NCBI GenBank assembly: GCA_010093705.1
Contig: MU006113.1
Coordinates: forward strand, 6,849-70,848
DNA from: Patellaria atrata CBS 101060
Taxonomy: Eukaryota
Direction of reading: 5' to 3'
Length of the DNA stretch: 64,000 bases
A model generated the notes under the pieces. That model did no database searches. It was given only the letters and a program-made list of their open reading frames with translations, and was not told the origin of the DNA. Positions 22,631-47,630 of the stretch are shown here, in pieces (the first letter of the stretch is position 1; every line of letters starts with the position of its first letter). The position numbers and the translations under genes were made by a program.

Positions 22631-24430
22631 TTAACCCCCGCCATTCTTCCGACGTTGCATGATCCCAATCTGCTGCGAGATCAGCGCAACCTGCTGCTTC
22701 AGTAAACTCAACTCATCATCGACCTCCATAGCCTCAGCGCCGACGCCAACACCTCCCTCAGCAACGCCTCCCTGCGCGGCCTCGGAAGCGCGTCCGCCCA
22801 CCTCTACACTCCCTCCCACGCTATCCTGCGCACTTACCGGAACCCTCACAAAGCCCGTGCCAGAGCACGTCTCACAGCGTCTCTGCTCCCATAAATTAGG
22901 CTCCTGCTCCAGCGGACCGAGACCGAGCGTCAACTCCCCGGCACTACCCGCAGTGTCATTGTCGAAGGGGGCGCCAAAATCAACGAACGACCCGCCGTTC
23001 AGGCCAACGGTAAGCGCGGGATCGATGCGTGTGGTGGCGATCTTGGCGTTACGCTCGGCGCGGGTATGGCGCTCACGCTCACGGCGCCGTTCGAGGCGTT
23101 CATCTCGCGAGGGACCGGAAGGACCGATGATGCGGGCACCGGACTCGAAGGTGAAAGGTCTGGTGGGCGGGACGGGGAAGAGGGAGCCGTCGTCTTGGCC
23201 CATGTTGAGACGGGCGCGATGGCGGGGATCCAGGGTCGTGTTTGAGCCGATGGTGGTGGCCGGGGTGAGAGAGGGATCGTGGATGCTGGCGGATGCGGCT
23301 GTATTGGGATTGGTGTTAGACGGAGTTTGCAGACGGTTCGGGCGGGATCCAGTTTCGGGTTGTTGTTGTTGGTTCTGCTGTTGTTGTTGGGCTGGCTTCC
23401 GGGGTCGCCTCGCGGGAAGTTCGCCTCGGGCGACGAGGATGGAGCGTTTGGTTTTGCGGGCGAGGTGGTCTGGGATTTCTTCGCCGTATTTTTCGGCGAT
23501 GAAGGCCATGATTGCTTTGGTTTCTGTGGTTGTGCGCATGGTGAAGCCAGAACGGGCGAGGGCGTCTTTGACCCAGCGTTGAGTGAACTGTACGCCGCGT
23601 TTCGCGTACTTAGGCTTCGCGCTGTCGTCATTCTGCCACGTTTCGCGGTCACATGTGTGTGCCGCAAGCACGTTCGTGACATGGACTGTGTATGGGGCGT
23701 CCCGCGAGATTATGGCTCGGACACGCCACTCACAGCCGGACGCATGATGTCTACAATGCCAATGGGCTCTGGAGGAATCTTTCTTTTGCACGCGCGTTAG
23801 GAATTTTTCTCGTAACGCCCATGAATTAATGATATATCTGAGAGACTCAAAGTCTGGAAAGACATCGCCCTCTTTCGGAATGGGAACATCCAGGGTAGGG
23901 AGAGGGGCATTTGTGTTCTCATTCTTATGAGGATTGTTTGCGTCGCCATGTTCATTAGACGAATCGTCCGAGTCATCATCATCTTCCTCGTCGTTCTCGT
24001 CAGATCTGGCTTGTGGCGGGGGAACAGGAATGTTGATCGACGGTTGGCGATGTGGTTGAGGGGGAGCTTGAGGTTGTGAGGGGAGTTGATTCCGATGGTG
24101 CTGTTGTGGAGTGAGAGTGTTGTACGGATGTTGAACGTGTTGTTGATGTTGGGGATGCTGGGGATGTTGCGGACGCTGAGCGAAAGGGTGATGATTCTGC
24201 AGCTGAGGGTGAGCGTGCTGCTGCTGCTGCTGCTGCTGCTGTTGTTGTTGTTGCTGTTGTTGTTGTTGCTGTTGTTGTTGTTGTTGTTGTTGTTGCTGTT
24301 GCTGTTGTTGTTGTTGTTGTTGTTGTTGCTGTTGCTGCTGCTGCTGCTGATGTTGATGTTGATGTTGATGCTGTAAGTGGGATGGCCGACGTTGGCCGGG
24401 TAGTTGAAGAGATGATGTGCCTGCTGGCAT
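22631..24430 (-). CDS. PolyQ protein with Mutator/MuDR-type (WRKY-GCM1-like) zinc-finger DNA-binding domain; likely a transposase-derived transcription factor
   Basis: EGDVFPDFESLRYIINSWA...HCRHHASGCEWRVRA...AHTC matches the MuDR DNA-binding C-x-C...H-x-C pattern. No DDE domain follows. C-terminal CETCSGTG and a short coiled coil. Confidence 0.8.
   Translation of the reverse strand: MPAGTSSLQLPGQRRPSHLQHQHQHQHQQQQQQQQQQQQQQQQQQQQQQQQQQQQQQQQQQQQQQQQQQQQHAHPQLQNHHPFAQRPQHPQHPQHQQHVQHPYNTLTPQQHHRNQLPSQPQAPPQPHRQPSINIPVPPPQARSDENDEEDDDDSDDSSNEHGDANNPHKNENTNAPLPTLDVPIPKEGDVFPDFESLRYIINSWALREKFLTRVQKKDSSRAHWHCRHHASGCEWRVRAIISRDAPYTVHVTNVLAAHTCDRETWQNDDSAKPKYAKRGVQFTQRWVKDALARSGFTMRTTTETKAIMAFIAEKYGEEIPDHLARKTKRSILVARGELPARRPRKPAQQQQQNQQQQPETGSRPNRLQTPSNTNPNTAASASIHDPSLTPATTIGSNTTLDPRHRARLNMGQDDGSLFPVPPTRPFTFESGARIIGPSGPSRDERLERRRERERHTRAERNAKIATTRIDPALTVGLNGGSFVDFGAPFDNDTAGSAGELTLGLGPLEQEPNLWEQRRCETCSGTGFVRVPVSAQDSVGGSVEVGGRASEAAQGGVAEGGVGVGAEAMEVDDELSLLKQQVALISQQIGIMQRRKNGGG
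24218..24349 (-). repeat. Coding CAG/CAA trinucleotide tract (44 Gln) preceded by a QH repeat
   Basis: 132 nt of CTG/TTG triplets on the + strand, followed by (ATGTTG)n. Confidence 0.95.
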
Positions 24431-24893
24431 TTTGGACTATAGGATGGCTTGTTTTTTCTAGGTCCTTGCGGGTATTGAGATTTGAGGAGCAGAAGCTGAT
24501 GTTGACTGCCACGGAAAATCCCTGATTGCCAAGCTGTCGGCGAGTCAGGTAAGGCAAATCCCGTCAGGTCATTTTCCAGAGCACAACCTTAAAGTAGTAA
24601 TAAGAGACTTTACAGTACGGATATCATTTCTCACATAAACTCTTTTCAATCTCATCGGATCATCTTCTGTCTTTTTCAAAATGCGTGGAGAATTGAAAGA
24701 GAAGTCCGTCGGGTTTCTCGCTCACTTTGACTGGGCTGAAACACCAACATTAAAGCTCGCCTCCACGCCGGTAACGCATTCATTAGGTTGACGGGGCGGA
24801 CATTGGCAATCCAGTCCAGCCTAAAAGTAGCAGGTCTGGTGAGTTATTAATGACTGTTATATACTTAATCACTTAAGGCACTCCGTACATTAT

Positions 24894-27598: not shown

Positions 27599-29087
27599 TC
27601 ATTTTTCCGGCTTCCGCCCATACACAAAATATATCGGCCAGTGTGCATGGATACGTCTATTTTTCATATCCTTTCTAACGTCCACAAGGAAAAGTTCCAC
27701 CTCCTCGCTAGACATCCCGAGAACCCGCGTCATTAACGCCATGGAATAGCCCTGTAGGCCATCTAGAGTATTCACTAAATTCCATCTTCCGAGTTCCTTT
27801 AGCCTTGGATCAGCCGGCCATGAATTTTGTGGCCAGACGAAGCGGATTTCCGTCACATCGATAAAGCCGACATCCTCCATCATTTTCTTGTATTGGTGAG
27901 CGACTAAAGGGTGCCCTATGCTCCCAGTTGCATTAACGATCATATCGGACCATTTCCAGAGGGCCGTAGACTCATTCAGTGTTCCATCAGTACAGTGTAG
28001 GGGCATATGAGTATCCTGCATTTCGATCCAGCCACCAGGGGTCAGGTTGCTGGTGCAGAATGAGTGTAAGTTGTAGGTTTTAGCGTCAGACGTACGTACT
28101 CAAAACATTGCTTGAAAAAGTTTTCCCAGTTCTTAAAACTAGCTGTCATCATTCTCGCATGGATGTAGTCGAACTTTTGACTCCATGTCCAGGGCTCTTC
28201 CACGTCGTCTATTTCGAATTGAAGATTCTCAGGTACACTACAAATACTTAGGACATACACATATAGCTGATTATGGATTTTTACATACAAAACGGGCTGA
28301 ATTGGACTTAAGTCTACTCCTATCACCTGTAAAGCGGTTAGATGATATTGACCAGTAAAAATTCAACCGTCAGAGCACTCACCCTACATTCTGGCCTCTC
28401 CTGCGCTTCAAGTTATGAGATTAAGCATAGATAGATTTGGAACCGACAAGGACTCACCGAAATCTATTGCCCAGATACCAGTCCCTGTCCCTACATCTAA
28501 AGCATTGTGGATGTTTGGACCTATCGGTGCAAGAAACAACTTATACTCTGTGGTCATAAGGAACATCTGATGCTGGAGATCTGGACGCCCGTGTCAAAAA
28601 AGTGGGAGATCTTGATAAAAAGGAATAGAATGCATACCAAGGCGATCACTTTCCGCCTTTGAACACTGTCAGCATAATGATTTCTTTTCAGGGGCTAGAG
28701 CCGAAGAACCTCGTCACTGGGTAAAACATATTCTACAATACCATGAGAAGAAAGACTAGCAAAGATATTTCAAGCTGAACATACTGCCTTCTTTGTATTT
28801 ATGATACCGTCTACCATTCTCTGTTACCCCGTCATACAAGCTCGATCTTAGGGATGCAGTCGATTCCGCTCTAGGTGATCGAGATTAGACTCTACAACGA
28901 ATCGCCGCAGGGTTTTGGTGGGCCTGATACATATGATAGACTTACATTTCCTCTCCTAGCGCCGAATCACCGCTCACTGAGCTGTCGTCCGGAGTCTGGC
29001 TGGATGTTAGTGGGGTACATTCGCCACAAGTCATGACTATCCACTTACGACGTCAGAAACATCTCCTAGAGCCGTCGGATCCTGCAT
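27599..29087 (-). CDS. LaeA-like SAM-dependent methyltransferase, about 10 exons
   Basis: Spliced exons give ENGRRYHKYKEG-YVLPSDE-AESDRL-DLQH...ALDVGTGTGIWAIDF...VIGVDLSPIQP-VPENLQFEIDD...FDYIHAR...LTPGGWIE...YGRKP. ATG at 29087. Confidence 0.92.
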
Positions 29088-29663
29088 AATTATAACAATC
29101 GGTTCGTTGAATGAGTTAAAATGCTCTATCTCTACATTTATAAGACAAGAAACGTCCTTGGGGAAGACGTTGGAAAATACCCAAGCCGCTAGAACTAGGG
29201 CTATACAAATGGCACTATATAAAGAATCCAATGATATCTCGCCTGAATGAGGTCGGTTAATATTCCACGAGGGGTATCCACCTAGATTTCCTCTGGAAGT
29301 CCAGGCCCGTGGAATGGGAATTTCAAGATTGTGACTTGGATCAATTCCACGTTCGTGAAGAGATATCTTAATTCATACATGGAGACAGACCCCATTTATT
29401 CTACCATGATAGGACTATTTCTCTCAAGCTTGATGATAGGCGCTATACAAGCTACAAATTAATGAGTTAAATGATAGTTCAAACAATGACTAAACGATAG
29501 GAAAATAAAGCGTATATAGGTAACTTGAAATGGCATAGAAGCGGACTTAGATGGATAGCGGCACGGACGTGTTAAACTTAAGGTGTCGCGTCCCCACCCA
29601 GCAACCAGAATGACAGATTTGACTGCAGTGTTACTTGAGTACAAGCATTTCTAGGACTGGAAT

Positions 29664-32024
29664 AGTAAGTTCCACCGCGTACCACAACACACAAATTCTA
29701 ATAGAAGCGCAACTGACAAGTACACAATTGTAGTGGCTATCTCAGTAGCTGCAATTGCTAGTATCCTTATCGTAATACTCTTCATCGCAAACCGCATTCG
29801 CGCGCAGCGTCGTTTGTCCCATATACCAGGTCCATGGCTCGCCGGCTGGACCCGGTTCTGGATGGTCAGGGCGAATATCTCTGGTCGATATCACGAGATA
29901 TTGTACGATACCAACGTCAAATATGGCTCTCTAGCGCGCATTGGGCCAAACCATCTTCTTACCAGCGATCCCGCGGTCATTCGTCGCATGAATGCGCCGC
30001 GGAGCCCCTATCGCAGAGCGCCCTGGTATAGTGTCTTTCGCTTCAAACCGCGCGCAGACAATATCATTACATATCTCGATGAAGACAAACATGAGGATCT
30101 CAGACGAAAAATGGCGCCAGGTTACAGCGGGAAGGAGGTGCCTAATGTTGAAGAAACCATCGACAAGTGGGTCTTGGAATGGGTGAAGCTCATTGAGCGA
30201 AAATATATATCGAGTCCTAGCGACACAAAACTTATGGATCTGGCTCGACAAGCGCAATATTTTACTTTGGACGTCATATCAGACTTAGCGTTCGGTGATC
30301 CGTTTGGTGATATTGTCGACGATACAGACAAATTCGACTATATCAAGACGACGGAAGAGGCTGCTGGGCCGATAGGTGTGTTAGCTATCTTTCCTCGAGT
30401 ACACAAATGGATAGAGCAAAGCCGAGTTATAGATCTTCTCGCTCCAAGCGCGAAAGATAAGACCGGACTTGGCCCTATTTTGAATATTACTCGAATGCGA
30501 GTTGAAGAACAATTCGCACAAACGGCTGAAAAGCAGCAACCGACCATGATGGGATCGTTTATCAGGCATGGATTAACCAAAGAAGAGGCCGAGTCTGAGA
30601 GTGTGCTACAAGTGTAAGGTTTTTTTTTCCCTTATACCACGGTATTTCACTAATGATACGTTCGAACAGTATGGCGGGCTCTGACACCTCCGCCACGGTC
30701 ATAAGAGTCGTGCTTCTACATGTTCTAACCTCTCCCGAAATTCTCAGCAAATTACGCGCCGAAATCGACGAAGGTATCTGCGAAGGTCGAATCTCCTCTC
30801 CGATCCGGGACTCAGAAGCCCGACAGCTTCCTTACTTGCAAGCTTGTATTAAGGAAGCTCTGCGGCTCTGGCCGCCCGTCGTTGGCATGCTGCAGAAGAT
30901 TGTAGCACCTGAAGGAGATACGATCGACGGTGTTTTTGTCCCGGGTGGAACTCTCATTGCGTAAGTCACAAATTCTAGTATTACCTTACTGTCATCATGA
31001 TTATCGTTATACCATCATCTACACTTTCTTTCTCTAAAATATTTCCTCTCCCTCAGTCATGATTCGCCCTCTTGTTTTCTATGCGCGTTCAGTACACTTC
31101 CAGGAGTATTGCCGACTCCGGCCCATTGCAAGATCTGTGCGAGCTGTACAAGCAAGTCGGAGTCTCCACATCTTGCAGTGTACAGTCCTCCAGGAGTCTC
31201 GCATACAAGAAGAGGACACAGCTCGATACCTAGAGACTTTCCCGTTCTTTATAATTTCCTCCTCTCTCAGATTCGCTGTTGTTCACTTGCTGTACGTACA
31301 CTGCACGTACACTGCCGTACTCTAGATTTTGGCTCATTGCGGAGTTTGTACAAGTTGTACAGCTGAGCCAGAAGTCTTCTGGTCGACTGTATACAGCAAG
31401 TGAGCAGCACCCATGCCAAAGAGGAGATACTTCCACTCCCTATCAAATCTTCCCTGTCGCTGCCTATTTTCCCTCCCTTTTTGATTTCGTATTCCTAGCT
31501 TATTATACGCGCACCGTACGTCTGCTGTACTATCAACACAACTCGGGACTTCCCCGAGCTGTACAGCCAAACCGAAACTCTCGTCCACAGTATCGTACAA
31601 CAAACTAGGAATAGACGCCACCTCTCTCGTCCCCACAATCCCCCTTCTGACCCTTCTACAGCTCCTCCGCTAATCTCCCCCTCACAGACAAAACACCTGG
31701 TCCCTCGGCCGCCAACCCCTCCTCCACGGCCCCGATTTCGCCCTCTTCAAACCCGAGCGCTGGCTCCCCACCTCCTCTTCTTCCCCCGCCAACCTCGCCC
31801 AAATGGAGCGCGATGCCGAGTTGACCTTTGGCTACGGACGGTTCAAGTGTTTGGGCCAACCGGTCGCGCTGATGGAGCTGAATAAGGTGTTTGTGGAGTT
31901 GCTGAGGAGGTTTGAGATCAGTGTTGCGAGGCCGGAGAAGCCGTGGAGGTGTGAGAGCAGGGGCATTTTCTTGATGAAGGAGTTTTGGGTTAGGGTCCAG
32001 CGGAGGGAAGGGGTTGAGGGATAG
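29664..32024 (+). CDS. Cytochrome P450 (pisatin-demethylase-like); exons 29664, 29734-30613, 30670-30960, 31688-32024
   Basis: N-terminal TM helix, IPGP, ARIGPN, I-helix AGSDT, ExxR (KEALR), PERW, heme motif FGYGRFKCLG. The ATG is formed across intron 29665-29733. Confidence 0.93.
31041..31640 (+). repeat. Three tandem ~212-nt hairpin modules inside the 727-nt last P450 intron (30961-31687); candidate intronic ncRNA array
   Basis: A shared leader ATTT(T)CC..pyrimidines..GATT(T)CG occurs at 31041, 31254 and 31466. Each is followed by a long stem-loop (31068-31215, 31278-31408, 31490-31613). Confidence 0.75.
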
Positions 32025-33379
32025 AGGAAGAGGTGGGTTAGGGGCTGGAGAGGTGTGTTGGAGATCAATTTGTGTGCGGTATGTTTGATATTTCTGATTA
32101 CAAGTATTATTGATATCTTGTACTTACTGTAAGCAATGTACATGTCATATCTGAGGAAACAGGTCTGGTGAGTTTACGGTGTTATGATTAGGTCTGCTAC
32201 ATGGGTAAGGAATCATTAGGACTCGAGATAAGTGACTCAAGACAGCTTTCATGATGACCCACAGTCTGCGTACGCACTTACTTGACACGCATACAATATT
32301 TAAGTTGGATCGGTGGAGCGTGTTATGAGTTTGACTGTACTGGAAGATGGTAGATATGACTCCTGGGTTTTCAAATCCGCGTAGCACAGTTGGAGATTTC
32401 GTCAGTCACAGTTTCTTAGTCACATTTCGTATTTCCTACTCAATCACGGCGGATTACTTTTATTCTATTCAACATCCTTCTTAAATGATCTCTCGACCTT
32501 CTCTTAGCCCCCATCATTCTCCGTCATTGTTTGACTTTCCGTGTCACTTTCGTTTCTGCTCTTGGGAAGCCTACGCTAGTCTCAGGGGACATGAGAAAAT
32601 CTCAAACACGGCGGCTATGAAGTATTATAACAACTGAGCTATTGGACACACGTGTAAGAGCGTACGGCTCTATGTCTCTACCCAGTCGTGGCTATCCCGG
32701 TAAGGGGATGTCGTACTCCCCGCTAGCTAAACAAAGAATCTTAGCGCCCGTTCCGGTGACTAGGTTTCCGGCTTGAACCGATTGACCGGGAACGCAACTG
32801 TCATGATTGACTGGGTCGGAGTGTGTGTAGAGTCGGAGGTGACGTGCTGTTGTAACTGGAGAGGATGAGTCAGGTCGATAGGTGGATCAGCAATGTCTCT
32901 GCGGAAAGCCTGTCATAGGCGCTTAAGATCGTTTTGGCTTTTGAATTTAACTCCTGAAACTAGAATCGCATGTGTAGGAAAGTCTCATTTGGTATAGGCT
33001 GCCGCTGAGTGACGGTCCATAGCGGCTCATCAAGCCTGATCATATTCTTTACTCCAATTGTTAGAGTCATAGGGGTGTAAATCTCCCATGACAAGGGTAT
33101 GATTTGTCCATCGCAGGTCCGCAAGAAAGGTGTATTTGTGGATAGCCGTTGTTCTCTTTACTCCTGTTATCTGCTACTATCCATCCACGATTCACCAAAG
33201 TTTATCTACTTTCGACAACCCGACTATCATCATCCCACTCAGCATATCTGTTGTTAGATATCAGCATCTATTCCCGATATTAGACTCCACCAACCTTGCC
33301 AGCTATTCTACTCGACCCAAAAAACGGTGTCTTTATCAAGAAGGCAGAGCGACATAACCCGAATCCTACCAACTGAGGC

Positions 33380-34174
33380 TTGCTCAACAGTCTGTCTTCT
33401 TCTTCCATGTATATTCTACCTCCTAATATCCTTTACAAAGAAAATACCACGAACAGCACGTATTTCGAGATGCGTAAGAAGCGAACCGGAGACGGGACCC
33501 CCTTCATAGAAATCTATTGCAATAGCGGAGACGAAGACAAACGCATCGCCGAACTCGAAATCTGTATTGAGCTCGTGTCTATGAAGTCCATTGACCGTGG
33601 TCGGATGCCTTTCAGCGATTTCAAAAAGTGTTTGATCCGTAAAGACTTCGATGAGGGGTACAAACAGAAAGATATTGACACCTTCAGCGAGACTCCCGAT
33701 TGGCCCAAGTCCATGATTGTCCAATTTGCCTTGCCAGATCACACCGGAGATCGCAGGACTGGGCACGAGAACTACTTCCCCTGTGCTTGTTCGCTGGAAG
33801 ACATCTGCCACTATTTGTCCATGCATTGCGCACCCTTCGCTAAGAAGACAACGATACTATGGCCGGTATACCACACGAAGAGTTTGTTTTCGAGAACGAA
33901 GGAGGAGCTGGTGGATTCTGAGAGCTTTCCCCGTCTGAAAGAATCTGATAAAAGGTATCTGAAACATCCTAAGAAATAGAATGACAGCGAAGATACTCCG
34001 GAAAAGTACATGCTGCGAACGAGGACTAAGAGGCTAGCCCGTCCTACGCTGGATATAACGGAACCTATTCTGTCTGACGGAGATATTTTCACTGTTTGTT
34101 CTTTTCAGACCAAGGCTCGATCACTGGATTGCTCCGTTGCTAGCAAGAAATATACCACACTAGGTAACAGGTAA
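33380..34174 (+). CDS. Orphan family member A; in-frame TAG at 33977-33979, frame stays open for 64 more codons; 5' end uncertain (ATG 33407 or upstream exon via acceptor at 33390)
   Basis: Shares ordered blocks DGTP/LEI/PDWP/CSLxDICH/TxILxPVY/SESF with member B. Confidence 0.75.
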
Positions 34175-34604
34175 CTAAGGGTTAGAAGGGAGAGACATCT
34201 GGATAGAGACATGCATGTTACTACGTGGCTATCCTCTGTATTTGCAGCATAATAAATGTTACTCCATAAATTCCATAATCTCTTAAGGGGATGCATTCTT
34301 TCCACTCACATAAAAAGCTTTATTTCCATCAATGCGTTTCCGACTTTTGCTCGAATAAACAAATCATTCACATATTCTACCCCGAGCCTGCTGGACTCGA
34401 GTATATAGTGAGTTAGTTGTTAAACTAATAGTTTATTAAGCCCATACGAGTCCAGTTCCATAGAAGTATGCTGATTGATGCTGGATAGGTAACCTGCACT
34501 TCATTTGATACAAGATTTACACTAATGATGAAAGGTTTGAGTGGATAGAAGGCCTATTTGTTTCCCCAAAAGGAATTACATGAGCATTCTCCCTCCCGTT
34601 TACT

Positions 34605-35863
34605 CTATCGCAATGAAAAAGTCCACGTCAAACAAACAAGTATATTATTCCGATCAGTAGAGGTGGTGCTGAAATACTCCTTGCGAATAGGTCGACACTT
34701 GTATTTGAGCTGGAACCAGTACTCCTCCTTCCTTGCCTTTGACTCTTTTATCCCTCGCTTCTCCATGTCTTCAAGAAAGCATTTCCTAAAGCTTTCGGAG
34801 CCCACTGGTGTTTTAACCTTCCTCTTTGACATCTTTAGTGGAGTATTATACTTCTCGGTGCAGTAAACTGGACGTAATATTGCGGTTTCCGTCGAAGCAA
34901 GCGATAGCTGTATCGCGAAGAAGTGGCAGATATCGTCGAGAGAACAATCCAGTGGGAGAGACCACTTGAGCGGAAGGTACCCTATATCTCTGAAAATGGT
35001 AGAGTCGAGTAGAAGTAGCAGACAATGCTTACATAGCCGTCCTAGTCTCCGCATTTGGCTAGCGTCCCAAAGACAGAATGTGTAAAATTCCTTCACCTCA
35101 GGCCAATCAGGATTTTCAGCATAGTTGAGTATGGACTGTTCGCTGCTTTTGGTTCCAAAAAGGCGACGGAGTAAGACCTTTGACAATAATATTTTCGTAC
35201 CCAAAGCGATCAGGGCGAACAGGGCTAATTTCCAGTCGAGAGGAGGAACAGAGTTCCCTCAACCCATTGCCAAACACTTTCACAATGGGAGTACCGTCTG
35301 TTGCCAGATTCTCGCGCATGGTGAAGAATGGGGGTTTTTCAGGCTTTTCGGGATCGGTTTCAGGGCTCTTTGGGATCGGTTTCAGGCTCTTCGGCTTCGG
35401 TTTTATTCACTTGGTCTAAGAAGCCCAGATCGAAGTGAAGGTGCATGCCGCTTTCCTGTCTATCGTTAGCTATATAGAATAGTGTCATGTGCGAGAAGGG
35501 GAATATTGACTTGTGGGGAAGCCGAATCCTCGGGACGGGTAACCGATGATTCGTCAGAAGCAACCATCGTAGAGGCAGTGGACATGTTTCTCAGGAGAAA
35601 AACGGATTGACGGAGATCATGTAGTACCGTCTCCGCGATATCAATGGAGCGAGACGATGTATCCAAATTTAAGGAAGAGCATCATCCTGTTCAACAGATT
35701 CGTGTTCGCCATCCAGAATTACAGAGCTATTCGATGTTTTCGTCTCGTGTGAATGCTCACCACCTTCCCGATCTACTGATGGAGAGATTGGGGGCTCGTC
35801 TGAGCCCTTGGGAATAGGTTGTTCATGTGTTTTTGTAGGATCAGAGATGAGGAAATAGCTCAA
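34605..35863 (-). pseudogene. Orphan family member B, frameshifted (~35205-35255, ~35362, ~35668); 5' extent uncertain
   Basis: FFTMRENLATDGTPIVKVFGN...LEIS lies in one frame and ENPDWPE...LDCSLDDICHFF...TAILRPVYCT...GSESF...QLKYKC in the next. An extra C in a 21-bp GAGCCTGAAACCGATCCCAAA repeat creates a TGA. An intron-like segment with a CTAAC..TAG end lies at ~35460-35510. Confidence 0.7.
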
Positions 35864-36519
35864 TTAAAGCCGAAATCTGTCAAGAGGACTTTTAACCGTC
35901 TAACCGTCTGATCAGTAGAAAAGTTGAGAAATAGAAGGAAGATATGAAATTGAGCTGTAATCGTAAATTCGCGATTCGGGGAATCAGTAATCTATGATCG
36001 AATAAGAAGAAAAATTAACCAGTAATAGCTCCTCTCATATACAAGAAACTCTTCTATAATAACTTAGAGAATAGGAATTATGGATAGCGCGTATATCTAT
36101 CATGAAAAAAGGAAGCGTTCCCACAACTCCATCGGCCAGAGAAGAGAAAATGCTTACTCATGGATGGCCAGTCACTCTGCGCCAGCCACTCTGTAGTACA
36201 AGAACCATAGTCAAGGCGGCTAAGAAACCTATCCAGAACGCAACATCCACGTCGCGCTCATCAACAGAAAGTAAGCCAACAACGAGAATGTGAATCAAGT
36301 CCAAGCTGAAGATATGTCTCAATACTATTGACGTTTGTAGTTCGGATTGGATTGCATTCGACGTTCAAAAACCTAATCTAGTAATTTCAGTATTTTATCT
36401 CAAACAACGAGGATCAGGCGCGAACTCGAGCACAGCAGTGCCTCAAACACCTACCTCAAGCGCCTAGCAATAGTGCACGGTAAGGTAGCCATAAGTGTTT
36501 TAAACGCGCCACTCGGAGG

Positions 36520-36619
36520 NNNNNNNNNNNNNNNNNNNNNNNNNNNNNNNNNNNNNNNNNNNNNNNNNNNNNNNNNNNNNNNNNNNNNNNNNNNNNNNNN
36601 NNNNNNNNNNNNNNNNNNN
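36520..36619. other. Assembly gap (100 N)
   Basis: Run of N followed by poly-G. Confidence 1.
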
Positions 36620-37082
36620 GGGGGGGAAGGGGGGTAATAATAGGAGTCTTAATTGTGGGATTACTCCTGGGGACGTCACCAGGATAATACTGATTCAAAG
36701 TTAACGGCCGTAGTTGATGATAGGGATACTGTTTTACAAAGATCTCATTTAAGAAGTGGACAGTTGCACCAAGATTACTCATACCTCTATCATCGTATCA
36801 ACGGGATAAACGTGTCAGGCAAGACTCGATGACTGGATACCACATCACCAAAGTTGACCGGAATATGAGGAAAACCTACGTACAAAAAGGACGTCTTCGG
36901 CACTGACATCGCATACAATAGATTCCTTTTTGATACTGTTGCATTAAAATCGCCTGATGCTGCCCCTAATCTTTCCTAAAGCGGCCCATTTGATCATAGG
37001 TTAGCATCATCACTGCTCAAGGCGTGTGCTGAAAGTCCGTACTGTACGTAAACTCATTCGCTGATCACCAAAGAGTGTAGCC

Positions 37083-37736
37083 ATGACTACTATGCGCTCC
37101 CAGATAGACGTCACCCGCTTCTGGATAATCGAGTTCCTTTGTGTCGGTACATTTGATGGTCAAATATTCGTCGAGATCAACGGTGAATTTGATGGGAAGT
37201 GCACGACTGCCGGTACATCCTTCTACCGCATGATAATCAGCATTGAGAAGGCAGAGAAAAGCCTTAGAATCGAAGTGCCCCAGTTGATAAGGGAAAGCTT
37301 TAAGGATATGTCCACTGGGCGGAGAGATCTACGTAAAGGGGGAAGCATCATTGAAAATATAAAGAGTGGCGAAGAACATGAAGCGTACAGGCGGAATGAA
37401 TTCGATATGCGGAATCGAGCCCAAGAGCGTACCCCGAGATTCTACGACATCCATCAGGACTGCGGATTCCTAGACATCTGTCAAACCATCGCTATAAAGG
37501 AACACTTTCACGAAATTTCCCGTAGCAGCATTATCGTATACTTCCGCCAAAGAATGGAAGGGGGGCTTCGACATGAAGACACGCCGGTGGATAGGTTCAC
37601 ACTGAAGGAACTCTTAGAGAAAGAACAGCCCGGCGAGAGAGCTTTTCTTAGGGTTGAGATTGAGCCGTTAGAAAAGTTTTTTGTAGAGGATGCCGATGAG
37701 ATAGCTGCATACGCTTGTGAGCCAAAAGTAGTGTGA
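37083..37736 (+). CDS. Orphan family member C (217 aa, uninterrupted)
   Basis: GCCATG start. TFDGQIFVEI, MIISIE, DCGFLDICQTIAI, TPVD and AFLRVEIEPL align in order with members A, B and D. Confidence 0.7.
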   Translation: MTTMRSQIDVTRFWIIEFLCVGTFDGQIFVEINGEFDGKCTTAGTSFYRMIISIEKAEKSLRIEVPQLIRESFKDMSTGRRDLRKGGSIIENIKSGEEHEAYRRNEFDMRNRAQERTPRFYDIHQDCGFLDICQTIAIKEHFHEISRSSIIVYFRQRMEGGLRHEDTPVDRFTLKELLEKEQPGERAFLRVEIEPLEKFFVEDADEIAAYACEPKVV

Positions 37737-38098
37737 GAGCGAAGTGGAGTCAATAGATTGAGGAATGTAAAGTTGTGGATGAAGGATGTAATTCAGAGAC
37801 AGTCCCACCAAAGCAACCGATTCTGTCTCTAAGTAAAATATGAGATGACTATAACTTTCATCTAAAAGCAAGTTCTTTACCCACCAAAAGACATGTAGTT
37901 ACATCATAAGAGCGTGCTACAGCAAGTGTTAAGGCATGCGAGAAGGCATGACTCTTATATGCGACCGATCAAATGACTTCGCTCGCCTTGAACCGCTTCT
38001 CAGAGTCAAGTTAAGTAAACTCATAGATGAATATTTCAGGCGTTGCTCATACCAACGTTCACAAGAAATGCTGGAATGAGTTCCAAGCTGCTCTAATA

Positions 38099-38279
38099 TG
38101 ACAGATTCCAGGAGTCAAGGTGCTCAAACCATTACGAAAACCAAGTTGTCCGGATGTGACAGCTTTCAGGAGTCAAAGACCTGAAGTTATGTTGAAAACC
38201 AAGCTCTTTTTTCTCACACCTATACTCACCAGTAACACACGAGCACATTCAGCACGCTTATGACAGCTTTTGGAGTCAA
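38099..38279 (+). repeat. Three copies of TGACAG(A/C)TT(C/T)(CA/T)GGAGTCAA upstream of member D
   Basis: Copies at 38099, 38157 and 38261. The first two units have a 58-bp period and also share GAAAACCAAG (38136, 38194). Confidence 0.75.
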
Positions 38280-38694
38280 ATTACAGGAGAGTACATGATG
38301 ACTGCGTTCCCCATTGCTCTCGGGAAGGCCTCTCGAGGAGTCACAGTCGATATAAATAGCCATGCGGATCCCTCTTTGAGATGAAGGAGTTCTACCATGC
38401 TTTACCGAGAATTAAAGCTTGCATCCCTCTAAATTCAAAGTCTGTTGTAACGATCAAACTTCACTGCTTACCTGTCGATTTACCTCTACACGATCCTAAA
38501 GACACCTTTATCACTTAAAGACCCTCTCCGCAATTAGCTCTCAAGAGTATCTCTTTAGAGCTCAACGTTGATCGTCAAAGCCGAATATTGCACCCAGGGA
38601 CCTCAAGTACTGCTTCCAGTCAAGCCCAAGTTAGAAGAACCACCCCATATGTGGTCTAATACAATGTTACTGATTTGATATTAGGATAGAAATA

Positions 38695-39561
38695 ATGAGT
38701 TCCCGAGACTGGAAAGCGGAACCAATGATCACTATGATGAATGGTCTGGACCGTCCGGTAAAAGATCCTATCATCGTAGTGAAGGGAAATACGGAAAAAA
38801 AGGACACGGGTCTGAGCACATGGAACTTGGAGATCAGCATAGTGAACCGGGCAAAATATTTGGCAACTATAGAAGGCATGGAACGCCCTTCTGGTCAGAC
38901 ACCCAAATTGTCAAGTACGGTGGGAACTCATCTTGACCACGCACCTTCCGTTCCCAAAGGTGTGCATCCTCGAGGAGAGATCTATAGGTTTGTTGGAGAT
39001 AAGCCAAACGCACCGGACGAGACACCTCCAAGCTCGAGTTTCCCGGACTAGTACTATTACTTCCCTACCCACTTCGAATTACATATCTGTCATGGGATCG
39101 CTATGCAGCACAAATTGCAGGAGCGTGAAAAATCTTTCTTGGGGGTGGAGCTCCAGCGGAAGACAAGGCTTTTGAGACACCAAAAGAAGTCGAAAGTAGA
39201 CTTCTCGAAAATTCAACTCCAAACGGATGCGGATTTCAAGCATAGGAAGTATGATAAGATGTGCAAAGGGGGTTCTGGAAAAGAGTATAAGTACCGGGTC
39301 GAGGTACAATACTTGGCGCGTCAGATAAAGCGTGATGAGTCCAAAAATATCGAGGAAGGTCAACTTCATTATAAGTGCATACTAGAGGAAACCGAGATTG
39401 TAAATCCATTCACTAGTAAAGACGCCATGCCAGACCAGTCAAACCCGTTGCTGGACCAGGACTATTTGCCGAACGTAGCTGATGAGAACATAGGGGAGCT
39501 GGCCAGTGACGCTATGCTGGACACATCCCAGAGTTGGTCAGTCATGGGAGATGTGTTATAA
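38695..39561 (+). CDS. Orphan family member D; single in-frame TAG at 39049-39051
   Basis: ORFs 38695-39051 and 39103-39561 are in the same frame, joined by *YYYFPTHFELHICHGIA. Blocks PIIVVKGN, LEISI, YFP...ICH, EYKYRVEVQYLAR and QLHYKC match A and B. Confidence 0.7.
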
Positions 39562-43396: not shown

Positions 43397-44731
43397 ACTT
43401 GACGACCAAGACGATGATATGACACTATTTCCGAGACTGATTGGATGCTCTTAGAAGCATTCGCCCTATGGTAGACTGACACCTGGGTCTATGATTGTCT
43501 ATATTCACGACTCACTTACAGCTTGGAGTTCATTTTAGGCGCCATGGGATATATTTTACATTTTCGGGCGGATATTGTATATGACATTTGGCGTTAGTAT
43601 CCTTTGTTTGGGATATCCTTTCAATCACTTGGGCAGGAAAACTTTATGATCATGGCGGTTGGTCTACTTTCATTTGAGATTGGACCTGTTTGGCGTTTTG
43701 GGGTTCTTTCCCCTTTCGGATTTTCTCCCTTGGGGTTCTTACCCCTTGCGGTCTTTTCTCCTCAGACATCCGACGAGAACAGTGTACCAGTACCTTACCT
43801 TATCCTCACACGATTCTTTCGACCACCACTCGGTCTTCGGAAGATGGAGGGACTAGAACGGTCCAATCACATGTAGATATAGATAGCTAAGGTATGGTTC
43901 GGCAGGATGCGAGGGAGAGAAATAAATATATATTACCACGCATGTGTCTGGGATGTTCAGGCTTTCCACATTACACCACTACCTAATTCTACCTTCCTAT
44001 GAACTCCCCTTCTCGCTTTGGAGTGTTCCGCTCTTTCTTTTCTTTCCCTGCTTTAGTATCGTACATTAACTTACGGTACGGCACGGACGTGTAGAAAGTT
44101 AAGGTTAAGGTTAAAGCTAAGCTTACTCGAACTGCACGACAGAACAGGAGCTGAGATGTACAGTACCTGAGGCTACGGTAAGGTAGGTAAGGTTTGCTTC
44201 TACTTCCTAGGGTACTTTCCATAGCTTTCTCAACCTGGAAGACGTTTACGGTACGAGAAAGTGAGGGTTGTGCTGATTATAAGGTAGGATTGTCTGTGTG
44301 GGTGAGAAGTTGGGGTTGAGGGGATACGGTACGGTATACCGTGGCCAGTGGAAGAGGGATAGCGATGGACTGACTTACGATCGGACAGACATTGCATATA
44401 CCTAGGCATCGCGACCACATTAAAGAAAAGGGACAAACGGTGAATCATTTGAACAAAATATTAACCCCACTAATTACAACCCCTTCTCTTATCCCACGGG
44501 ACATCCGCAACCATAAATATCTAAAGGAGAGTCATGAATATAAAAGTACTCCCAAAAATCCGAGGAGTGTCCGAGAAAGCGCCCATGCGATGCATATATT
44601 ACAACCAACCTAAACCTTTTGTATTACCGAACGATGATTATCCCCGATGAGATAAGCGGCGTATAACCATCCAGAACACACATAAACACTAGGAAAAAGT
44701 TCCGCTCGTTTGGAGCATATCTCCCTGGCAC

Positions 44732-47630
44732 TTACAAAACCAAAGCGAAAGCACCGATGATGGCAGCTCCGACGAATGAGCCGGCCTTAATGTTGGAGGC
44801 TGCACCGGTGAATTGTGCCGGAGAGGTCTCGACGCCAGTAGGGACTACTGGAACGGTGCCGAATGTCGTTGGCGCGAAGCCAGCGGGTGTTGTAGTGACC
44901 ACCGGAGCATATGCAGGTGTGGTCACTGGCATTAGATTGACGACTGGAGTCTCTGGTGAAGTCTCCTCCTCAGGTTGGCTGGTGAAAGCGACTTGAGGAA
45001 CCGTGACGACAGTGGAGATAATCTTGGTAGTTGTATCGAGAGTGATGATCGACTCGAAAGTAATAGTGGTGCAAGGAACTGCATAAGTGGGTGCCTCGGG
45101 GACGGAAGTGACGACCGGAGCAGAGGGGTATGGCGCAATATCCGCTGGGAGAGAGACGGATGGGTAGACGGGAACAGACTCAGCCGGAGCAGATGGATAC
45201 GGTGAACCAACTGGGATGGAAACTGCTGGGACAGACTCGGCTGCGTAGGTAGGAACGGGCTGCACAGGCGTGTAGGTAGGCGGGTGCAGAGTAATGGTGC
45301 TAGGGCAATTGGTGATAAGACCCGGGTTGTCGTTGACGAAGACGGCGCAGATACCTGTAAGGTAAGATAAAGCGTCAGCGATGACATCGTCATCGGCACC
45401 CCAGGAGGTAACACATTCCATGACGTCCCTGATGAAGTTGGCTTCTTTGCAGTAGCAGCTTGCATCCGTGTTATCGGCGCAGGTGGACTCGTCGAGAAAG
45501 GTGTTCAAGCATTGAGGAAGGACTTCAGGGCAGTCGGAGGTTGGCATAGGATCGGCAGGCTCGCTGGACGATGGGTAAGGAGTTTCGCCGACGGGAGTAG
45601 TAACGGGATAAGGAGTTTCGCCGACGGGAGTAGTAACGGGATAAGGAGTCTCGCCAACTGGAGTAGTTTCCGGGTAAGGAGTCTCGCCAACTGGAGTAGT
45701 TTCCGGGTAAGGAGTCTCGCCAACTGGAGTAGTTTCCGGGTAAGGAGTCTCGCCAACTGGTGTCGTCTCTGGGTAAGGGGTCTCGCCAACTGGTGTTGTC
45801 TCTGGGTAAGGGGTCTCGCCAACTGGTGTAGTCTCTGGGTAAGGAGTTTCACCTTCTTGAGTAGCAGTTGTGCAAGCCGGCTGTCCATAACCGCCGCACT
45901 CACCAGCTGGAGTAGTAGAAGGATAAGGGGTCTCACCGGCGGGGGTGGTCGTGGTGCAAGCGGGTTGGTTGTATCCGCCACATTCACCGCCAGTGGGTTG
46001 AGTCTCAGCGGGAGCGGTCGTGCTGCAAGCGGATTGATCGTAGCCGCCACATTCGCCGGTAGGTGTGGTCTCAACTGGAGGTGTGGTTTCCGCCGGAGTA
46101 GTCTCAACGGGGGTTGTAGTACTGCAAGCGGGTTGCTCATAGCCACCACATTGACCGGTGGGGGTAGTCTCAACGGGAGGAGTAGTCTCAACGGGAGTAG
46201 TAGTGCTACAAGCGGGCTGATCATAACCGCCACACTCGCCGCCAGTGGGTTGTGTCTCAGCAGGAGTCGTTGTGCTGCAAGCGGGTTGCTCATAACCACC
46301 ACATTCACCGGTGGGAGTAGTCTCAGCAGGTGTTGTTTCGACGGGAGGTGTTGTCTCAGCTGGAGGCGTTGTCTCAGGGGCAGTTGTGCAAGCGGGCTGA
46401 TCATATCCCCCACACTCGCCGCCGGTGGGTTGGGTCTCCACGGGAGGTGTTGTCTCGGCGGGAGGCGTAGTCTCAGGGGCTGTCGTGCAAGCGGGCTGGT
46501 CGTAACCTCCGCACTCGCCGCCAGTGGGTTGAGTCTCCACGGGGGGCGTCGTCTCAGCGGGTGATGTCGTCTCAGGAGCGGTTGTGCAAGCGGGTTGGTC
46601 ATATCCACCGCACTCTCCGCCGGTGGGTTGAGTTTCAGCGGGAGGTGTTGTCTCGGCAGGAGTTGTAGTGCTGCAGGCCGGTTGGTTATATCCGCCGCAT
46701 TCACCTCCGGTAGGGGTAGTTTCTACTGGAGCCGTGGTGCTGCAAGCAGGTTGATTGTAGCCGCCACATTCACCGCCAGTCGGGACTGTTTCAGCCGGAG
46801 TAGTGGTGCTGCAAGCAGGCTGGTTATATCCACCGCATCCATCAACCGGTGTAGTCTCAACAGGAGTAGAGGTAGTGCAGGCAGGCTGATTGTATCCGCC
46901 ACACTGAGGAGCGCAGGGAGGTTGGTTATATCCTCCACATTGGGGACCGCATGGGGGACGATTGTACCCACCGCAAGTAGGTTGAGGAAGCGAAGGCGTA
47001 GTCGTTGTAGATCCGCAATGGAAGCGAACCTTGTGAATATTCATTTCGCAGTTATTGCGACCTTGATGATGTTTGGGGAGCTTGAAAGTAACTGTTTTCG
47101 CACCACCACACTGTCTGTTCTTCACCACAGTACCGCCGCGTTGGCAGTTTGTGGTCTGTCTGCAGACCGATCCATCAGCCATGCCATAATGCAACTCAAC
47201 TTCAACGTTGTCCAGGTCGACTGAAAGCTCAAACTCGTCAATAGAAAAGTCGGGTTTAGATCCGCAAGAGATTCTAGGGCCATTGTCGTTCTGAGTAATT
47301 TTACCAGTGATACACCTGGGTTGGAAAGTACGTTTGCTCAAATCGTCACGCCTCCCAAATCGATTGCCACAGGAGAAGCCAGAGAAATCTGATCCACCAT
47401 AATGGTTGAATGGACCAGTAGGCAGATTACCCCAGTCGTAGCCGTGATTTTGCTCTGGAGAACAGACGTGGTTACCTCTGCCAGGGCGGTTGAAATTCTT
47501 TGCTCGAAGAGGCCAAGTCTATATTTATATCAGCTTGGTCTCAAGATGATCCAGGATCAGATATCCGACATACCGCAGTGACTTGTTGGGCAACCAGGCC
47601 CCAAAGGAAAACTGAAATGGTAGCCTTCAT
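44732..47630 (-). CDS. GPI-anchored CFEM-domain cell-wall adhesin (Mad1-like); exons 47630-47574, 47518-44732
   Basis: Signal peptide MKATISVFLWGLVAQQVTA, Cys-rich N-domain (CQRGGTVVKNRQCGGAK), Thr/Pro/Glu tandem repeats, CFEM (CPEVLPQCLNTF...C.DNTDASCYC), GPI signal FTGAAS...AAIIGAFALVL. Confidence 0.92.
45570..46980 (-). repeat. Coding tandem repeats: 15 x CGGY(N/D/E/G)xxxC modules, then about 10 x 30-bp GETPYPETTPV-type units
   Basis: Read directly from the translation and from the 30-bp nucleotide periodicity at ~45570-45850. Confidence 0.95.

Follow-up and report, generated by a model that had tools for sequence, protein, structure and literature searches.

Multi-copy, lineage-restricted genes with fast turnover and many pseudogenised copies are familiar in fungi as the wtf genes of Schizosaccharomyces, the Spok genes of Podospora and the HET-domain genes, and the drivers among the wtf genes have transmembrane segments. 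A further kind of system is described in two reports on Neurospora crassa (PMC11628664, PMC10684091), where genes that have no recognisable homologue beyond a narrow lineage (lineage-specific genes, LSGs) are reported to be physically clustered, linked to duplication and to non-coding tracts and generally non-essential, and to form clusters that mostly lie next to telomeres and HET-domain genes. The subject of this study is a stretch of 64,000 nucleotides (nt) of nuclear DNA from the fungus Patellaria atrata CBS 101060 (contig MU006113.1, positions 6,849 to 70,848; the whole stretch is called the window, and coordinates are those of the window). Four loci, here named copies A to D, are packed into 6.1 kb of a 9.8-kb interval between a cytochrome P450 gene (last exon ending at ~32024) and a RING-finger gene (from ~41863). 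They are probably paralogues, old and very far diverged, of a single protein-coding gene with a restricted taxonomic range, and the local cluster that they form is partly decaying.

Set beside the wtf, Spok and HET-domain genes, copies A-D are alike in being multi-copy and putatively lineage-restricted and in including pseudogenised copies. They differ from wtf in having no transmembrane helices, from Spok in being far smaller than the Spok proteins, and from the HET-domain genes in having no HET domain. The likeness to the Neurospora clusters consists of clustered genes without recognisable homologues and of duplication; here, however, core genes flank the copies, and a HET domain turned up neither in the copies themselves nor in any of the 78 open reading frames (ORFs) scanned against Pfam (78 of the 136 window ORFs of at least 100 amino acids (aa), the other 58 being mostly alternative frames over identified genes). 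The Neurospora LSGs were defined by comparison within a well-sampled genus, whereas the present fungus has no near relative in the collection searched, so the lineage restriction of its copies is less firm.

Results

Four loci with shared, ordered blocks

A preliminary description, made from the letters of the window, had named four loci with shared blocks, and ORFs were located at each of them. Copy A occupies 33470-33979 on the forward strand (169 codons, with a TAG at 33977-33979) and appears intact. Its frame is open from 33377 to 33979 (+) and offers an ATG at 33470 or at 33407, of which the former aligns with the start of B and the latter is where the public annotation starts the gene (P0001, 190 aa). 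Behind the TAG the same frame runs on for 64 codons (33980-34174, +), and these contain what had been taken for block 4 of A. Copy B is convergent with A (A on the forward and B on the reverse strand) and is divided between two reverse-strand ORFs, 34605-35258 and 35116-35406, by a frameshift near 35181. Its N-terminal piece, B1, comprises 46 codons at 35182-35319 (-; MRENLATDGTPIVKVF...) and lies one base out of frame with the C-terminal piece, B2, at 34605-35180 (-), which makes up three quarters of the copy (191 codons, 35180-34608, plus stop) and contains PDWP, CSLDDICH, TAILRPVY, SESF and block 4. For B, the publicly called gene P0002 (149 aa) begins at an internal Met downstream of the frameshift. 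An upstream limit of 35863 proposed earlier for B did not hold, as the ORFs there are in other frames and match nothing. Directly 5' of the start codon of B are three tandem 22-nt units (35342-35406), which in the N-terminal frame encode a repeat rich in Pro, Lys and Glu (KPKPKSLKPIPKSPETDPEKPEKPP).

Copy C is an intact ORF of 217 codons on the forward strand (37083-37736, with its ATG at 37083 and its stop at 37736). Copy D, also on the forward strand (38695-39561, ATG at 38695), is interrupted by one in-frame TAG at 39049-39051, which separates an N-terminal piece of 118 codons up to the TAG (D1, 38695-39051, +) from a C-terminal piece of 169 codons plus stop (D2, 39052-39561, +) that contains YFPTHFELHICHGIAM and block 4. 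Neither the exact C nor the first part of D, under these boundaries, was found in the protein collection.

The blocks follow one another in the same order and at similar spacing in all four copies, as had been described, with blocks 1/2/3/4 starting at residues 8/29/102/179 in A, 8/29/122/200 in B, 25/50/123/187 in C and 23/45/122/197 in D. The full-length proteins on which that description was built exist as frames, but to read them through, a stop has to be ignored in A and in D and a frameshift in B. Few positions are invariant in the four-way alignment (I112, C113, V148, R183 and C210 in A numbering). The conserved core consists of an N-terminal DG with a hydrophobic stretch, then an LEI/MII-S stretch, then the invariant I-C followed by H or Q within a C-x5-C-H-like motif, and a basic Y..R...C tail is common to B, C and D. 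The products would be about 170-290 residues long and are hydrophilic (grand average of hydropathy -0.33 to -0.75); in agreement with the preliminary description, no transmembrane segment was indicated by hydropathy in any of the four proteins, the highest Kyte-Doolittle mean over 19 residues being 1.33.

Kinship of the four copies

Compared by BLASTP, A and B align with an expectation value (E) of 6e-13 and 28% identity across 148 residues, and the matching stretches include PDWP, CSL[ED]DICH, T.IL.PVY.T and SESF, so that the three motifs previously listed as common to the two (PDWP, TxILxPVY and SESF) all fall within the alignment. The Smith-Waterman z score of the pair was 21.7, a value reached by none of 300 shuffles, and B1 used as a phmmer query ranked A first (E 0.056) among the 1573 six-frame ORFs of at least 25 aa that served as the window ORF set for the leave-one-out searches below. 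At the DNA level, the sole echo between A and B is a 39-nt block encoding CSLEDICH (74%). Judged by their amino acid sequences, A and B are certainly paralogous.

The kinship of C and D was examined with leave-one-out hidden Markov models (HMMs), in which a profile made from three copies was searched for the fourth among the window ORFs. Each left-out copy was the first non-member found: the BCD profile recovered A at E 4.5e-07, ACD recovered B2 at E 9.2e-06, ABD recovered C at E 0.0087 in a single alignment (profile 7-155 against residues 30-186 of the C ORF), and ABC recovered D2 at E 0.0045 over profile positions 100-198. None of 2000 composition-matched shuffles reached the true score in any of these cases, whether for the head of A (33470-33979; 26.7 bits), for B2 (22.5 bits), for C (12.9 bits; best shuffle 8.3) or for D (13.7 bits; best shuffle 6.3). 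The two-member CD profile scored B above all of 2000 shuffles, and A above all except 6 of 2000. D2 was also the first match beyond A and B both when the query was A by itself (E 0.15) and when it was the AB profile (E 0.35), and hhalign placed the A+B alignment on block 3 of D (P 0.013) and on block 3 of C (P 0.021). Semi-global z scores of the weak pairs were 2.25 (A-C), 2.87 (A-D), 2.21 (B-C), 2.32 (B-D) and 3.26 (C-D). Control comparisons of 25 unrelated window-protein segments with the four copies (n = 100) had a mean z of -0.18 (sd 1.00, maximum 3.27) and reached 2.2 or more in 2 of the 100 cases, and reversed sequences (n = 12 comparisons) gave -1.35 to 0.67.

A narrower family, in which only A and B are related and C and D are unrelated orphan ORFs whose likeness was picked out by eye and arose by chance and composition, is the strongest of the alternatives, and a number of results weigh on its side and against kinship of all four. 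Pairwise BLASTP was non-significant for A-C (E 0.5) and A-D2 (E 0.095), and neither C nor D used as a phmmer query found any other match in the window. The score of the AB profile on C was matched by 41 of 1000 shuffles, the two-member profiles AD and BD placed C seventh (E 5 and E 1.6, respectively), and CD found B2 only at E 0.59. The hhalign probabilities were just 3.4% (D) and 2.2% (C), and a profile-profile comparison of AB with CD did no better (P 0.022). One shuffled A ORF reached 16.1 bits (E 0.00065) with the ABC profile in one of four null databases, so thin profiles can reward composition. The codons behind the TAG of A, and hence block 4 as previously drawn in that copy, are without family support: the BCD profile scored -1.4 bits there, which 724 of 2000 shuffles matched, and the codon-position GC pattern is absent (0.45/0.48/0.45). 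Against the narrower family stand the leave-one-out searches, in which each copy tops the non-members at E below 0.01 and above all shuffles of its own composition, the agreement of the C and D alignments in which blocks they cover and in how those blocks are ordered, and the z scores of the five weak pairs, all at least 2.2 when 2 of 100 controls were as high. On this balance that alternative is unlikely, and homology of all four copies, as the preliminary description had claimed, is very probable.

Two copies interrupted, two open

The pieces upstream of the lesions in B and D were aligned to the family separately. The ACD profile aligned B1 at profile positions 13-25, corresponding to block 1, with a score reached by 11 of 2000 shuffles, and the ABC profile aligned D1 at positions 11-35, corresponding to blocks 1-2, with a score reached by 17 of 2000; across the window as a whole D1 was non-significant with this profile (rank 34, E 31). 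As B1 and D1 align at the expected blocks, both lesions interrupt reading frames of the family type.

Independent Logan contigs from two DNA runs of one sample, the reads of which are probably those used for the assembly, showed 0 differences over A and B and no more than one other letter elsewhere in the stretch, at a depth of 300-460, and the B1 sequence was reproduced at a depth of 320-460. Neither the TAGs nor the frameshift is therefore a slip of this assembly. Introns that might remove the lesions were also sought, and none of the GT..AG candidates was convincing. The sole candidate restoring the frame of B (35220-35178) is just 43 nt long with a poor donor. A CTRAY branch site is missing from every in-frame candidate around the TAG of D, and the four candidates that end at the TAG have donors (GTTGGA, GTGCAT, GTTCCC and GTGGGA) that depart from the fungal consensus. 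An in-frame candidate with a branch site in A (33911-33979) would remove the SESF block common to A and B. A may simply end at its TAG, to judge from its tail. Since the lesions are real and the tail of A is without family signal, the cluster consists of two open copies (A and C) and two broken ones (B and D).

Search for relatives

When the six ORF pieces of the copies were compared with Pfam at E up to 1, just three noise matches far below threshold were returned, and a four-copy profile had 0 matches among PDB sequences at E up to 1. An exhaustive HMMER search of 1.84 billion representative proteins, made with the A+B profile only, returned A, B and one ankyrin-repeat protein, and no further copy was recognisable by that profile. 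The ankyrin-repeat protein was matched in four short stretches and is regarded as spurious. Word-index searches with A, C and D gave no relatives. In the ESM Atlas, the best feature score for A was 0.78, below the level of a lead, with a structural template-modelling score of at most 0.40, and C had no usable match. A scan of metagenomes with the A+B alignment confirmed a sole locus, which was rejected as a pattern artefact: it lies on a GC-rich contig of bacterial type, and the FSETPDWP pattern occurs there in a 59-aa frame that overlaps longer ORFs. By the Pfam, PDB and A+B profile searches the family is thus unrecognised, with no match to a well-described family, in line with what had been proposed.

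The TRM1 protein (731 aa) and the protein kinase (597 aa) encoded in the window are each alone in their 90%-identity cluster among ~15 billion proteins, so this fungus is without a closely related genome in the collection. The orphan status of the copies may accordingly be partly an effect of sampling. Relatives elsewhere may also be unannotated, because C and D are unannotated even in this genome. Both points weaken the case for a narrow taxonomic restriction.

Predicted fold and product

Structure prediction gave no readable model. By AlphaFold2, A (with B) had a mean predicted local distance difference test (pLDDT) value of 34.5 and C (with D) one of 28.1, and for A the Atlas model had a pLDDT of 0.32; strands at residues 20-24, 27-32 and 50-53 appear in the poor model of C, which is too uncertain for a fold to be assigned. 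A beta-grasp fold (ubiquitin-like or PB1-like) had been suggested, and the only likeness to it is the strand-strand-helix-strand-strand order guessed at the time. Beta-grasp domains are much shorter than ~190 residues, which is the approximate length of the conserved core of the copies, and none of the six ORF pieces had a ubiquitin or PB1 match in Pfam at E up to 1. The fold therefore lacks sequence support, and models as poor as these would neither support nor exclude it on structural grounds. Our best guess at the product, a weak one, is a small intracellular and possibly nuclear protein that may bind metal or nucleic acid; the conserved Cys and His positions and the basic clusters are its sole basis.

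Mode of divergence

Between A and B the proportion of synonymous differences (pS) is 0.77, which is saturated, and that of nonsynonymous differences (pN) is 0.47, values taken from a protein-guided alignment that pulls pN downward and to that extent weakens the case for constraint. The differences comprise 140 transitions and 187 transversions. Repeat-induced point mutation (RIP) would be expected to raise TpA/ApT, to lower (CpA+TpG)/(ApC+GpT) and to leave transitions in excess when copies are compared; from 32 to 42 kb the composite index for RIP lies between -0.23 and -0.37, and the possibility that the copies are relics of RIP was rejected on these negative indices and on transitions not exceeding transversions. 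The saturated pS, the lack of a transition excess and the negative indices together mean that the copies are old and were not separated by RIP. Fast divergence, which the preliminary description had put forward, is unsupported, as the same pS and pN equally fit old copies under some constraint.

That description had also called a cluster of this kind typical of allorecognition, defence or meiotic-drive loci. Such an active conflict locus, for example a poison-antidote pair, would here be a new family diverging in an arms race, and the tight cluster, the very diverged copies, the gene death, the convergent A/B pair and the want of relatives elsewhere all speak for it, though indirectly; turnover at such a locus would account for the extreme divergence as well as for the broken copies. 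Lineage-specific gene clusters adjoining HET-domain genes in Neurospora, as one report describes (PMC10684091), are a further indirect point in its favour. The domain content speaks against it: the copies have no conflict-type domain (HET, NACHT, kinase-like or other), and HET, NACHT and similar domains are absent from the 78 scanned ORFs as well. Transmembrane segments like those of the wtf drivers are likewise missing from the copies, and A-B pS is saturated with pN below pS, so that no positive selection is shown. A role in conflict is thus unsupported, and we consider it quite improbable. A slightly smaller chance still is given to the bolder combination in which the copies represent a fold and a protein family without parallel elsewhere and at the same time a live conflict locus, as in a poison-antidote or non-self-recognition function of the convergent A and B with their relatives.

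Coding character

The interval holds five ORFs of at least 169 aa. Among 500 shuffles of the interval, one ORF of this length occurred in 27, two in 1 and three in none. The GC content at second codon positions is lower than that at first and third positions in each of A, B2, C and D2 (0.46/0.39/0.60 in A), and none of 11 other-frame ORFs across A matched the B locus, so the A-B likeness is specific to the protein frame. On these features of composition and frame, the frames of the copies have coding character. A reading in which none of them is a gene, the P450-RING interval being non-coding DNA where frames are open by chance or survive as long-dead relics, would agree with the absence of C and D from the protein collection under these boundaries, with structure predictors finding nothing foldable and with the single long ORF of 27 of the 500 shuffles, but it is highly improbable against five such ORFs when 0 of 500 shuffles had three or more, a frame-specific likeness of A and B at the protein level, the codon-position GC pattern and pN below pS.

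Surroundings of the cluster

Domains identified by Pfam in the larger ORFs of the window are kinesin, DEAD-box helicase, TRM1, MuDR-type transposase, cytochrome P450, RING and CFEM, together with protein kinase, SAP, TMEM234 and DUF7626; no Pfam match was obtained among the ORFs scanned from the P450-RING interval itself. An accessory island, as previously supposed, is unsupported, the flanks being the core genes for P450, RING, TRM1, the DEAD helicase, kinesin and the kinase. No terminal or long repeats were found flanking the cluster, and the window yielded neither a tRNA nor an Rfam family. A second element of clustering is the annotated gene P0006 (39853-40392, -), which lies within the same 9.8-kb interval and has no Pfam match. 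Its product of 180 aa is the sole member of its 90% cluster, and the four-copy HMM shows no kinship of it to copies A-D.

Between B and C lies an assembly gap of 100 N (36520-36619). The gap probably hides homopolymer tracts, because the independent contigs break off at a long poly-T run to one side of it and at a poly-G run to the other. Upstream of the interval, a MuDR-family transposase DNA-binding domain is encoded in a 600-aa ORF (22634-24436, -) with a long poly-Gln run near its N-terminus; taken from its first Met, this ORF is absent from the protein collection. A methyltransferase-domain ORF (28045-28362, -) adjoins the multi-exon cytochrome P450 gene (29655-32021, +), and the two (region 27602-32024), at the edge of the orphan interval, may form a small metabolic gene pair. 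On the other side, a CFEM-domain ORF of 927 aa (44735-47518, -) lies within a stretch of positive RIP-type composite index (+0.37 at 44001-46000); elsewhere in the window the index is positive only at 1-2000 (+0.21).

Discussion

We favour the reading in which all four copies are old paralogues, very far diverged and clustered locally. The array would have arisen by local duplication, both tandem and inverted, including one inversion to account for the convergent A and B. The copies would then have diverged until synonymous sites were saturated, with the reading frame under protein-level constraint, and the array would now be partly decaying, through the frameshift in B and the TAG in D, while A and C are still open. 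The birth-and-death history put forward in the preliminary description is borne out as to death, by these two lesions; the history itself, like a dispensable and lineage-restricted nature of the family, we infer.

If this reading is right, the public record of this genome can be corrected on two points: its protein set lacks C and D, and the gene call for B starts at an internal Met downstream of the frameshift. The finding does not on its own open a long-standing question. If it is true, one more lineage-restricted fungal gene family is documented, and such a family can expand locally, stay for long under protein-level constraint and then partly vanish, which would provide a data point for the origin and turnover of orphan genes.

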